NCBI GenBank assembly: GCA_965216565.1
Contig: OZ244170.1
Coordinates: forward strand, 3,680,001-3,744,000
Reading direction: 5' to 3'
Source of the DNA: Bythopirellula sp.
GTDB taxonomy: Bacteria > Planctomycetota > Planctomycetia > Pirellulales > Lacipirellulaceae
Length of the DNA: 64,000 nucleotides
Shown here: positions 12,957-16,594 of the stretch, in pieces
Position numbering within the stretch: the first letter of the stretch is position 1
Layout of the letters: each line of letters opens with the position of its first letter
Notes under the pieces: model-generated
Seen by the model: only the letters and a program-made list of their open reading frames with translations
Database searches by the model: none
What the model was told of the DNA's origin: nothing
Made by a program: the position numbers and the translations under genes

Positions 12957-13817
12957 TTAATCGAGGTCTTTAGATTGGGGAGGTGCCGCTGTGAATTCAG
13001 GCCATGCAGCTTGGATGGCAGCCAATACTTCAGGCATCACCGCCTCAGCACTCGGTCCCCCGACAATCGCTAGCGGCCCATTCCAGGAAATTCTATCCCG
13101 CACCTGACATTCATCTTCCAACTGCCCCCGGGAATTGCAATCCCAGGCGACCACCACACCCACATCCGATCCCGCAGTGCAGCGTTGATTTTCGTGTCTT
13201 TGATGCCAGGTCGTGGTAATTTCCAATTCCTCATGCTCCGGCGAGAACGCACTCGTATCTAGGGACAGTTCGTCTTGGAAACGGCTCTTGAGAATCGAAG
13301 ATAATTCCTCGGCTGGCGTGCCATCACTGGCAACTACGGCCACCACTGGCGGTGCCTGCCGGAGATGGCTGGCCAATTGGAAGAGGGTCCATCCGCTCAA
13401 GGGATGAACCATGGCACCAGCAATTTCACAAGCAGGTTCCAAAACAAACCGCCGAAATGTCATTCGAGGATGCGGCACTGTAAGAGAATCGCTGGAAACT
13501 ATCTGGCTGTCGTAAAGCAATAAATCGACATCTATCAACCGCGCATCCCAACGCACGCGACGCTCGCGACCCATGCGAGCCTCTAGGTTGTGCATCTCAT
13601 GGGACAATTCGAGAGGCTGAAGGCGGGTTTCTAGGAGCACGCTCGCATTGAGAAATCCATCCTGCCCAGCAGGGCCACCGACTGGATTGGTGCTGTACCA
13701 CGCGCTCCGCGCCAGCTGATTGGTGCCCGGGAAAAGCGAAATCCCTTTCACCGCCTGGTAGAGATTCTCAGACGGGCACCCCAAATTCGACCCTAGTGCT
13801 AGCAATGCCCGAGCCAT
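12957..13817 (-). CDS. folK: 2-amino-4-hydroxy-6-hydroxymethyldihydropteridine diphosphokinase with C-terminal extension
   Basis: LALGSNLG, FLNA, RWDARLIDVDLLLY, VPHPRMTFRRFVLEP; about 130 extra C-terminal residues. Confidence 0.92.
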   Translation of the reverse strand: MARALLALGSNLGCPSENLYQAVKGISLFPGTNQLARSAWYSTNPVGGPAGQDGFLNASVLLETRLQPLELSHEMHNLEARMGRERRVRWDARLIDVDLLLYDSQIVSSDSLTVPHPRMTFRRFVLEPACEIAGAMVHPLSGWTLFQLASHLRQAPPVVAVVASDGTPAEELSSILKSRFQDELSLDTSAFSPEHEELEITTTWHQRHENQRCTAGSDVGVVVAWDCNSRGQLEDECQVRDRISWNGPLAIVGGPSAEAVMPEVLAAIQAAWPEFTAAPPQSKDLD

Positions 13818-13927
13818 AAATTCCAATCAGTCACGACGTCAAAAAATTTGCCATTACTTTTCTCGCCAGAGACCGAGTAGTCAAGACTGCGAGTCTCGGT
13901 AAGATATGCAATATAGCGACTGGGTAC

Positions 13928-13963
13928 AAAAAAAGGAGTTCAAGACGTCTTGCCTTGAACTCC
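13928..13963 (-). terminator. Rho-independent terminator
   Basis: Minus strand GGAGTTCAAG-9 nt loop-CTTGAACTCC (10-bp perfect stem) followed by T7. Confidence 0.9.
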
Positions 13964-14141
13964 CTTCGTAAGCATCCGTGCCATCAAATGGGGAGGGGCA
14001 TCCAGTCCTCAACAGAAAGCATGCTTCCTGCGCCGACGGGCGTTCCCTACTTTGTCGCCCCCCATAAGTTGAACAGCAATGGCTCGCTAAAATCGTTTAT
14101 TACAGCAGTTCTCAAGTTCGTTTCGACATTCGCAGACGGTT
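13928..14141 (-). ncRNA. Candidate CsrA/RsmA-binding (CsrB/RsmY/RsmZ-like) small RNA
   Basis: Six GGA motifs within 13961-14046 on the minus strand, an ACGGA hairpin, no credible ORF, ends in an intrinsic terminator; 5' end inferred from a sigma28-like promoter. Confidence 0.6.
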
Positions 14142-14147
14142 CGGAAG

Positions 14148-14175
14148 TTATCGTGCAGAAGGTAGACATACTTCA
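14148..14175 (-). promoter_or_regulatory. sigma28(FliA)-like promoter candidate for the sRNA
   Basis: Minus strand TGAAG-N15-CACGATAA; same geometry as 58806-58833. Confidence 0.35.
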
Positions 14176-14671
14176 ATGAAACAACGCAGGAATATCGGAG
14201 ACCTCTCATTCCATAGAGAATCTCGGGCAATAGCACTAACGCCAAACAACGAAAACTGCAGACTATCGCAATGAGGATCATCGGAGCGCAATCTTAGCGC
14301 TGAAAGTCGTGCCAGTTCTTTACCAAGTCCCACCAGTTGCGACCGCCTGGGCCCCAACACAAAAGCAATCGAGGTAATGCCAATCGAGGTAAACAAGACG
14401 AGCAGTCGGAGGCACTGCTCAGGTTTGAGGTCTTCAAATACTAAAAGGTTCCATCAACAGGAGGCGATTTTTGCCGCTCTCGGCACATATGTCAACCATC
14501 GATTTTAATTTTCCGTGTCGAGAAAAGTTACCGAAAAAACAAAATCGACTTGACAAAGTTATTCTAAACAGAATTCCGCTTCGTCCACTTATCTGAATCC
14601 GATTCTGTCGTTTACGATGCGATGTTCTGCTGACCATTTGTTACCACACTGAGACACAATTCCACTTGCCG

Positions 14672-16594
14672 ATGACTACTTCCCAATCGAAAAACAAACC
14701 GGTGCGGATTGCGGCCTTCGAGAGTCGCCGTATGGCCGAAATGGAAAAACTGATTGAGCGCACCGGCGCGGTTCCTTTCGTCAGCCCTTCGATGCGCGAA
14801 GTCATCGTGGAAGAAGATCGTCCCGCCATTGATTTTTGCAATCGATTGATCACCGGGCAAATTGATGTAGCTATTTTTCTCACCGGCGTAGGAGTGACCA
14901 AGTTTTTCGAACGCATCCAGCGACACGTACCGCGTCAACGTGTGCTGGATACTCTTGCCGATATCCAAACCGTAGTTCGTGGCCCCAAACCCTTGGCCGC
15001 GGTCAAAGCAATCGGGATTACTCCCTCGCTACGTGTACCGCCACCAAACACCTGGCGTGAAATTCTTTCTACGCTCGATGCGCAGCTACCCGTTGCGAAC
15101 CAAGTCGTGGGGGTACTCGAGTACGGAGTACCTAACGTCAGTCTGAATGCTGGGCTCGAAGCTCGCGGTGCCACGGTGGAATCGGTATCGATCTATCGTT
15201 GGGATTTGCCCGAAGACATCGAGCCATTGAAAGCTAACGTTCGACGAATCATCGCCGGGGAAATCGATCTGGCGATGTTCACCTCTGCCCAACAAGTGGT
15301 GCACTTACTGAAGATCGCAGGACAACTCCAGCAAGAAGAAGAACTGCGCCAAGCGTTGACCAAAATCGCAATCGCATCCATCGGTCCGACGACTAGCGAA
15401 ATGTTGCGATCGCAAGGACTCTCCGTCGACTTCGAACCCTCCGTTGCAAAAATGGGACACCTCATTAAGGAAGCGACGTCACAAGCGGAGCAACTACAAA
15501 AACGCAAACAACAATTGGCAGCGCAGCTTGTTCTCACCAAGGAGAGCTCGACTGACGGACAATGGGACGACACGCCGTTCATGCGAGCCTGCCGTGGACT
15601 ACCGACACCGTACACGCCCACGTGGCTGATGCGGCAAGCCGGTCGTTACATGGCCGAATATCGCGCCGTGCGAGAGAAGACCTCCTTTCTCGAGTTGTGC
15701 GAAAACCCTCAGCTTTGTAGCGAGGTGATGTGTACAGCTGTTGATAAACTAGGAGTCGACGCGGCGATTATCTTCTCCGACCTGCTCCCTATCCTGCAGC
15801 CGATGGGACTAGACCTGGAATTCGTGGCTGGCGACGGCCCACGTATCAACAACCCGGTTCGTTCAGCCGATGACGTAGGCCGTGTGAAAGAGCTGGAAAA
15901 TGTCGATGCCCTGCACTATGTCGTCGAAACCGTCTCGCAAACCCGCAAGGACTTACCGGCAGATATCCCACTGATCGGATTTGCCGGAGCGCCGTTTACT
16001 TTGGCAAGCTATGCGATTGAAGGTGGCGGCAGCAAGAGCTACCTCCACACCAAGACGCTCATGTATCGTGAACCTGCCGCTTGGAACGATTTAATGCAAC
16101 GGCTCTCGCATTCGATCACGATCTACCTGAATGCTCAGATCGCCGCCGGTGCCCAAGTCGTGCAGCTCTTCGATAGCTGGGTCGGCTGCCTCGCCGTGGA
16201 AGACTACCGCACCTTTGTGATGCCGCATGTGGCCAGCATCATTGGCAATCTGTCGCCCGGAACGCCGGTAATTCACTTCGGCACGGGCAACCCCGCCCTG
16301 TTGGGTTCTATGACCGAAGCCGGTGGCGACGTCATTGGCATCGATTGGCGCATCAATCTTGCTAGCGCCTGGCAAACGGTTGGCACCGATCGCGCTGTCC
16401 AAGGCAATCTCGAGCCGCTTGTGCTGCTCGCGGACCAGGAGACGATCGCAAGCCGCGCGCAAGACGTGCTCGACGCCGCCGCAAATCGGCCCGGGCATAT
16501 TTTCAATCTCGGGCACGGCGTGCTGCCACAGACGCCCGTTGAAAACGCACGGTTCTTGGTCGATTACGTACGCCAAGCCAGTGCTCGACAATAA
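14672..16594 (+). CDS. hemE: Fused uroporphyrinogen-III synthase (HemD) / uroporphyrinogen decarboxylase (HemE)
   Basis: N-half HemD-like (FLTGVGV, VRGPKP, FTSAQQV, SIGPTTSE); C-half HemE (PTWLMRQAGRYMAEYR, AAIIFSDLL, GFAGAPFTLASY, QLFDSW, VQGNLEP, HIFNLGHG). Confidence 0.93.
   Translation: MTTSQSKNKPVRIAAFESRRMAEMEKLIERTGAVPFVSPSMREVIVEEDRPAIDFCNRLITGQIDVAIFLTGVGVTKFFERIQRHVPRQRVLDTLADIQTVVRGPKPLAAVKAIGITPSLRVPPPNTWREILSTLDAQLPVANQVVGVLEYGVPNVSLNAGLEARGATVESVSIYRWDLPEDIEPLKANVRRIIAGEIDLAMFTSAQQVVHLLKIAGQLQQEEELRQALTKIAIASIGPTTSEMLRSQGLSVDFEPSVAKMGHLIKEATSQAEQLQKRKQQLAAQLVLTKESSTDGQWDDTPFMRACRGLPTPYTPTWLMRQAGRYMAEYRAVREKTSFLELCENPQLCSEVMCTAVDKLGVDAAIIFSDLLPILQPMGLDLEFVAGDGPRINNPVRSADDVGRVKELENVDALHYVVETVSQTRKDLPADIPLIGFAGAPFTLASYAIEGGGSKSYLHTKTLMYREPAAWNDLMQRLSHSITIYLNAQIAAGAQVVQLFDSWVGCLAVEDYRTFVMPHVASIIGNLSPGTPVIHFGTGNPALLGSMTEAGGDVIGIDWRINLASAWQTVGTDRAVQGNLEPLVLLADQETIASRAQDVLDAAANRPGHIFNLGHGVLPQTPVENARFLVDYVRQASARQ

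Follow-up and report, generated by a model that had tools for sequence, protein, structure and literature searches.

The window, by which we mean the whole 64,000-nucleotide stretch of Bythopirellula sp. DNA that was analysed (contig OZ244170.1, positions 3,680,001 to 3,744,000), holds a gap of about 840 nt between folK and a divergent gene encoding a HemD-HemE fusion, and nothing in this gap has a Pfam match. The features of the gap and its two flanking genes are collected in Table 1. The original prediction had placed here, at 13928..14141 in a gene-free region, a candidate CsrA-sequestering small RNA on the minus strand. The region is indeed without recognizable genes: its three intergenic ORFs lack Pfam matches, and across the genus none of ten small ORFs shows conservation at the protein level. 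A small coding gene was rejected after tblastn of these ten against 24 loci of the genus, in which the only matches were trivial ones where the hairpin and terminator are conserved as nucleotides. The likely start codon of folK is the ATG at 13817-13815, about 110 nt past the terminator, and the N-terminus aligns with those of orthologues. FolK is 289 aa long, with an HPPK domain that spans only residues 9-136 and a C-terminal region of about 150 residues without Pfam match; in orthologues the open frame is between 235 and 407 aa long. The upstream neighbor is a single gene of 642 aa that joins uroporphyrinogen-III synthase (HemD) to uroporphyrinogen decarboxylase (HemE), a fusion kept across the family.

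Table 1. Features of the folK-hemDE intergenic region and its flanking genes, in window coordinates.
Feature	Position	Strand	Details
hemD-hemE fusion, divergent upstream neighbor	14666..16594	+	Pfam HEM4 and URO-D; outside the element
Sigma-70-type promoter	14467..14495	-	TTGACA 14495-14490, 17-nt spacer, AAAAAT 14472-14467; 10/12 matches in consensus scan
Non-coding transcript / folK leader, predicted	13928..14460	-	about 535 nt from predicted start to U7; both ends predicted
5' hairpin	14399..14421	-	GAGCAG-loop-CUGCUC, then GUCUUGUUUACCUC; terminator-like scan
Core three-way-junction domain	13988..14065	-	covariation on 80 orthologues; model R1
P1 (closing helix)	14065-14058 with 13999-13988	-	GGGGGG/CCCUCC plus covarying closing pair
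P2	14057-14054 with 14037-14034	-	CGAC with GUCG; loop of about 23 nt with GGA1 and a conserved CGAC
P3	14031-14012	-	hairpin variable in length and sequence
J3/1	14011-14000	-	joiner of about 12 nt, carries GGA2
GGA hairpin	13972..13981	-	GCA-CGGA-UGC = GCACGGAUGC; holds GGA3 at 13977-13975
Strong intrinsic terminator	13928..13964	-	GGGAGUUCAAG-loop-CUUGAACUCC; 11/10-nt stem, 9-nt loop, U7; sequence and MFE fold
folK (HPPK)	12957..13826	-	Pfam HPPK, E = 3.2e-33

Transcription is predicted to start near 14460. Four sequencing runs under the same species label, presumed to be of RNA, gave no coverage of 13500-14900. The promoter that would drive it is shared widely, with a consensus across loci of TTGACA-N16/17-CAAAAT; that of the window aligns with TTGCTTGACA-N17-CAAGAAT in two congeneric genomes, G017 and G020. 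A strict regular expression finds the motif at 18 of 24 loci of the genus, and a looser one finds it at 22 of 27 loci from other genera of the family and at all 29 examined from other families. The motif is not shared by the tmRNA and RNase P promoters. Between promoter and junction domain lies a stretch of 50-450 nt, variable in both sequence and length, and the total length of the RNA ranges from about 120 to about 600 nt across orthologues. Within this stretch the 5' hairpin block AGCAGUG..CUGCUCGUCUUGUU is kept in G017 and G020, and a similar hairpin with a U-rich tail occurs in G113. Lying some 40-60 nt past the predicted start, this hairpin could act as a terminator early in the transcript, or as a regulatory element of the leader in its own right.

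At the other end of the predicted transcript, positions 13964-13928 form a G+C-rich stem followed directly by a U-run, and termination there is predicted from sequence; the terminator-like scan skipped this hairpin because of its loop limit of 8 nt. In G020 both arms have changed (CAAGG/CUUG to CAAAA/UUUUG) with the stem maintained. By a crude detector, the linker contains a further terminator at 14/24 loci of the genus, 18/25 of the family and 6/26 of other families. Just upstream of the terminator, the exact hairpin GCA-NGGA-UG(C/U) is found at 15 of 24 genus loci, with any of the four bases at N, and near variants occur at most of the remaining ones. GGC-ACGGAA-GCC is seen in G113 and G114. 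As a rule the hairpin is absent from other families. It resembles a CsrA site of the CANGGAUG type, which we take to be the consensus. In G020 (L003:1560-1710, minus strand) about 130 nt of inserted sequence lie between the junction domain and the module of GGA hairpin plus terminator, and the two modules are therefore separable.

Plain BLAST finds the element in only two of the 26 other genomes of the genus, G017 and G020, in both cases between hemDE and folK. The remaining orthologues were recovered by a combination of synteny, profile and covariance model. DNA upstream of folK was gathered from every genus genome with an identified folK, 24 in number. An nhmmer profile of three orthologues matches 23 of these 24 regions, several over their full length, and the twenty-fourth, from G009, was recognized by pattern and then by covariance model. 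In a three-region alignment (window, G017 and G020), conservation extends far past the limits of 13928..14141, through an ordered series of blocks: promoter, 5' hairpin with U-rich tail, further blocks, a GGGGGGCGAC...CCCCUCCC domain, GGA hairpin and terminator. A degenerate pattern for the domain matches sequences labeled Bythopirellula, Lacipirellula, Lacipirellulaceae and Pirellulales. Model R1 finds one match each in 65 of 120 genomes of the family (18 of 24 genera), about one each in 116 of 151 genomes of the order (28 of 30 families), and none in 150 genomes from the rest of the phylum. The second match in G257 looks spurious, and that in G136 is divergent, with no folK adjoining within 2.2 kb. 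G232 carries two copies of the domain plus folK, on two contigs, with near-identical domains and differing linkers.

The secondary structure was examined in a set of 80 orthologues (77 distinct). In alignments fitted to model R1, whose structure included P1 and three pairs of P3 from the outset, 92.0% of the pair cells of P1, P2 and P3 are standard-paired, compared with 50-59% when the 3' partners are slid by one to three columns. Changes on both sides are seen in 12 of 17 pairs (95 cells), and the covariation score is reached by none of 500 shuffles; a pair count on 51 sequences gave the same picture. P2 is absent from model R1, and yet the pair counts support it. The long-range helix that the original prediction had drawn between AUGGGGGGC (14065-14057) and GCCCCUCCCCAU (13999-13988) is P1, and in this alignment of orthologues it covaries. 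The pair that closes P1 beside the U-run is itself covarying (CG 17, UA 17, UG 15, AU 10). P1 is a G-C helix of 7-8 bp that runs directly into the U-run, as the stem of an intrinsic terminator does, and at least four U lie within 12 nt of it at 59 of 75 parsed loci. The arms of P3 read GCAGGAAGC/GCUUUCUGU in the window and mostly GCGAAC/GUUCGC elsewhere. A mini-stem of 2 bp, closing a 7-8-nt loop round GGA1, is weakly supported, with 62.5% of cells paired and a score reached by 12 of 500 shuffles. An alternative P2, pairing the second CGAC with GUCGG, was dropped since the window, G017 and G016, among other sequences, do not form it. Taken over these alignments, the domain is a structured RNA conserved about once per genome across the Pirellulales.

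The GGA trinucleotides deserve separate treatment, since the notion of a CsrA sponge was built on them. Six occur on the minus strand of the 145-nt element, at 14046-14044 (here GGA1), 14028-14026, 14008-14006, 14003-14001 (GGA2), 13977-13975 (GGA3) and 13963-13961, and they are present, like the ACGGA hairpin, the long-range helix and the terminator, just where the original prediction had them. Its chance expectation of about 1.3 GGA is also correct, the genome mean being 1.27 per 86 nt. Segments of 86 nt with at least six GGA number 17,933 of about 10.42 million in the genome (0.17%), however, and 12 loci of the 64-kb window reach this density, so that GGA density by itself is unremarkable and not significant. 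The folding energy of the 217-nt stretch, at z = -1.97 relative to shuffles, is likewise modest. The densest GGA locus of the genome lies elsewhere, at C1:313590-313735 (plus strand). It is a heptanucleotide tandem array, (GCATGGA)x14 followed by (GCCCGGA)x3, with up to 18 GGA in 145 nt, no open frame of more than 100 aa, and a TCC-rich, partly complementary segment 3' of the array; it is about 10 kb from a fliW-csrA-flagellin cluster. Judged by its sequence, it could be a simple repeat, or it could be a far better candidate for a CsrA sponge than the element upstream of folK.

Conservation singles out some of the six. Only three are conserved, and two of these are invariant in the 24-sequence alignment of the genus; the GGA in CAGGAAGC is not kept, nor is that of the terminator stem, which is retained only in G017 and G020. 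GGA1 is invariant in all 80 aligned orthologues, and GGA2 is kept in 79 of the 80, the sole exception reading GGC. The former is unpaired in the apical loop of P2, and the latter lies in the single-stranded joiner J3/1, directly 5' of the 3' strand of P1 (GGAUGYCCC). Positions outside the GGA are equally conserved, namely GCGAC, the loop CGAC and GUCGGCG. The 5' part of the RNA is not enriched in GGA, with 273 observed and 339 expected over 69 orthologues (mean z -0.45). The alignments resolve the stretch at 13928..14141 into an order-wide core plus a genus-specific 3' extension. What had been noticed there is real overall, in that the covariation of the helix and the conservation of three of the six GGA exceed chance.

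The position of the domain relative to its neighbors differs on its two sides. A folK gene lies downstream on the same strand at all 24 genus loci, at 24 of 27 loci from other genera of the family (27 of 40 matches examined), and at 26 of 29 from other families (the best-scoring 29 of about 110 loci), or 74 of 80 examined loci overall. The hemDE fusion lies upstream at 26 of the 27 loci in other genera of the family and at none of the 29 in other families. Across the order, to judge from these loci, only the co-oriented downstream gene remains linked, while the upstream neighbor changes. In five species the domain and folK are separated by only 11 (G100), 30 (G256), 34 (G102), 47 (G128) or 62 nt (G026), which leaves no room for a separate folK promoter. 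Six of the 80 loci retain the domain without a downstream folK. Three of these are from species of one genus (g25); here an intact promoter and domain are followed by a convergent gene, and folK is found on the opposite strand at a distance of 2.6-4.3 kb. The next gene is convergent in G036 as well; in G254 the domain is followed by a strong terminator and then a membrane gene of the LPG-synthase type, and in G246 by a gene without assigned identity. No other folate gene was found downstream of the domain at the folK-less loci.

Searches for known RNA families gave no identification. The comparison with Rfam that had been suggested as a check returned no Rfam 15 hit at gathering score anywhere in the window. 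With E allowed up to 10 over 13700-14800, only unrelated noise appeared (SpF36, BTnc049 and STnc290, with E above 4), and among 20 orthologous loci searched with E up to 5 there were three weak hits to unrelated families, none recurring. The Csr/Rsm families match neither the window nor the 20 orthologous loci, and the THF-I, THF-II and ZTP riboswitch models find nothing in the window region (E up to 10) or at those loci (E up to 5). In the 5' region the opposite strand carries a ZTP-like CCGCCUGGG, but this sequence lacks conservation and matches nothing in Rfam. ARAGORN finds no tRNA or tmRNA gene in 13000-15500, the tmRNA being at genome positions 4747893-4748251, and RNase P RNA is likewise encoded elsewhere, at 739593-740050. 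The 6S RNA model RF00013 has no match in this genome (E up to 1) and none in 61 Lacipirellulaceae genomes (E up to 0.01). This null result, in the genome and 60 relatives, agrees with a published remark that 6S is missing in Pirellula, Rhodopirellula and Thermogutta; PMC5673643 reports no 6S homologue in Thermogutta and cites Wehner et al. Folds of six short orthologues show local hairpins and the junction, with unpaired 5' and 3' ends and no rod with a central bubble.

The RNA upstream of folK is apparently previously undescribed. We found no description of it in literature on planctomycete CsrA and small RNA, folate riboswitch candidates, 6S RNA, candidate structured RNAs and Rhodopirellula baltica, and the Weinberg 2017 motifs were compared by way of Rfam 15. 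The Rhodopirellula-1 motif (Weinberg 2010) is a different, multi-copy motif.

The stretch originally flagged appears to be the 3' part of a longer non-coding region upstream of folK. We tentatively favor the reading that this region is a cis-acting transcription attenuator and not a CsrA sponge, giving it a little short of an even chance on the comparative evidence. On this view most transcripts begun at the strong promoter would end at P1 and its U-run or at the second terminator, and the fraction that instead reads through into folK-panC-lgt would change when an effector is bound to the conserved unpaired nucleotides. Candidate contacts for such an effector are the P2 loop, with GGA1 and CGAC, and the joiner with GGA2 beside the 3' strand of P1. 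The effector might be a folate-pathway metabolite, in which case the leader would be a riboswitch, or a GGA-binding protein, for example one of the 12 CsrA paralogues. GGA2 lies immediately beside the terminator strand, so that termination could be gated by a protein that binds GGA, a CsrA paralogue for instance. In the riboswitch version the domain would be the aptamer of a new class restricted to Pirellulales that senses a pterin or folate-pathway intermediate, and the closing helix would double as the intrinsic terminator gating folK. We regard it as possible, if on the unlikely side.

Several lines of evidence lead to the attenuator reading. As in cis-acting leaders, a covarying, conserved domain holds a consistent, co-oriented position upstream of one gene. 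P1 to P3 covary, there is about one copy per genome, and the distribution is limited to Pirellulales. The same-strand linkage to folK is kept while hemDE is lost; the duplication in G232 involves domain and folK together; and the gaps between the two can be very short. The U-run beside P1, its covarying closing pair and the non-coding character of the region point the same way. Other observations count against an attenuator. The six loci without folK fit a trans-acting RNA. A near-consensus promoter conserved across the order and followed by strong terminators is commoner for a stable RNA gene than for a biosynthetic mRNA. The long variable stretch upstream of the presumed aptamer is unusual, and no conserved anti-terminator pairing was found. 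Finally, the domain precedes no other folate gene, so that no regulon backs a metabolite ligand.

Those same folK-less loci, together with the strong promoter and the terminators that follow it, keep alive the idea of a CsrA-family decoy, in which an abundant trans-acting RNA would present the two invariant junction GGA, and in this genus a third in the hairpin, to one or a few CsrA dimers and so relieve repression of their mRNA targets. We consider this reading unlikely, although CsrA binding to the RNA is possible. Parts of the original proposal hold: this is by all indications a non-coding RNA with a long-range helix, a terminator and exposed GGA. The stand-alone, GGA-rich sponge of 140-215 nt is not supported, with the promoter about 535 nt upstream of the terminator. 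The conservation of the GGA is similarly divided, since two are kept order-wide in regions that the supported structure leaves unpaired, and a third is kept in the hairpin of 15 of 24 genus loci, where the loop NGGA tolerates any N and retains GGA, but the other three of the six are not kept. Two or three conserved GGA are few, as known Csr/Rsm sponges carry many more. A sponge would be expected to have about 4 to 22 GGA, mostly in hairpin loops and spread along the RNA; here there are six, three of them conserved, and the 50-450 nt of the 5' part show no enrichment. The equal conservation of non-GGA positions speaks for a specific fold and not for the display of a short motif. A decoy, moreover, leaves unexplained both the co-duplication in G232 and the linkage to folK, a linkage that persists while the other neighbor changes and that argues against a free unit. 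The sponge reading is thus weakened by the small number of conserved GGA, the deep conservation outside them and the tight link to folK, as well as by the failure of every Rfam Csr/Rsm family to match.

The supply of CsrA in these bacteria is compatible with a decoy. As the original prediction stated, csrA is not in the window; a check of the genome itself, also proposed there, gives 12 Pfam CsrA hits and a single FliW (L004-L012), with fliW at 302768-303112, csrA at 303229-303384 and flagellin from 303956. All 151 genomes of the order have CsrA, with 2-17 hits each, but these include 35 without a match to R1, so that co-occurrence is uninformative. A leader of about 110 nt directly upstream of one csrA paralogue (L006:1393-1503, equal to C1:1502980-1503090, plus strand) contains at least eight GGA and a AAGGAGGGAG ribosome site. 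It looks like a case of CsrA autoregulation, and a GGA-dense leader in this position suggests that the organism makes use of GGA sites. The flagellin leader of the genome offered no clean reference CsrA site.

A further reading, which we judge more doubtful still, is that of a stand-alone housekeeping RNA with some other partner, merely co-transcribed with folK, for which the junction would be a module binding protein or RNA, and P1 with its U-run the 3' end. The single-copy, order-wide occurrence and strongly conserved promoter suit such an RNA, as do the loci lacking folK. A vacancy of this kind could be seen in the absence of any match to the Rfam 6S model in this genome and its family, and in the remark on Thermogutta in PMC5673643. 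The six orthologue folds with their unpaired ends are not a 6S-like rod, however, the total lengths span about 120 to about 600 nt, and the retention of folK against the loss of hemDE indicates a functional link in cis. That the stretch is a functionless chance cluster of GGA beside an ordinary terminator, as the commonness of its GGA density and its modest fold z-score might suggest, can be given almost no credence in view of the order-wide conservation, the covarying helices, the invariant GGA and the model match found about once per genome.

Planctomycetes have almost no characterized regulatory RNAs, and the one upstream of folK is order-wide, single-copy and clearly covarying, and Rfam 15 has no equivalent family. 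Should it prove to be a riboswitch or a protein-gated attenuator, it would give a first handle on the control of folate synthesis in Pirellulales and a new RNA fold to solve. If CsrA binds it, the phylum's unusually large CsrA families would have a first RNA partner.

Comparison with characterized systems shows partial resemblance to each of several. With CsrB, CsrC, RsmX, RsmY and RsmZ of Gammaproteobacteria the RNA shares unpaired GGA, one of them in a hairpin, a Rho-independent terminator and a host that has CsrA. It differs from these sponges in its few conserved GGA, its conserved three-way junction, its fixed position before folK and its lack of an Rfam match. The THF-I riboswitch (RF01831) is built on a three-way junction, and both THF-I and THF-II resemble the present RNA in having a junction-type domain in the leader of a folate gene, followed by a helix and a U-run. 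THF-II, the folE motif, is located upstream of folE, according to PMC6800512. Unlike the THF riboswitches, the domain described here has no Rfam match, occurs only before folK, is preceded by a variable stretch of 50-450 nt, and has six loci without folK.

In Escherichia coli the 6S RNA gene ssrS lies upstream of the folate gene ygfA and is co-transcribed with it. The present locus is similar in that a strongly promoted non-coding RNA directly precedes a gene of folate metabolism, in a family where no 6S RNA is detectable, but the fold is not 6S-like, the length is variable and RF00013 does not match. Attenuators mediated by proteins are also known, with TRAP acting at trp, PyrR at pyr, and CsrA on termination in the pgaA leader. 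We know of no case in which CsrA gates an intrinsic terminator. The folK leader is unlike these systems in having only two triplets and a binding protein that is hypothetical here. It resembles the TRAP, PyrR and CsrA attenuators in its arrangement, in which a leader structure with repeated short triplets stands beside a terminator and GGA2 abuts the terminator strand.
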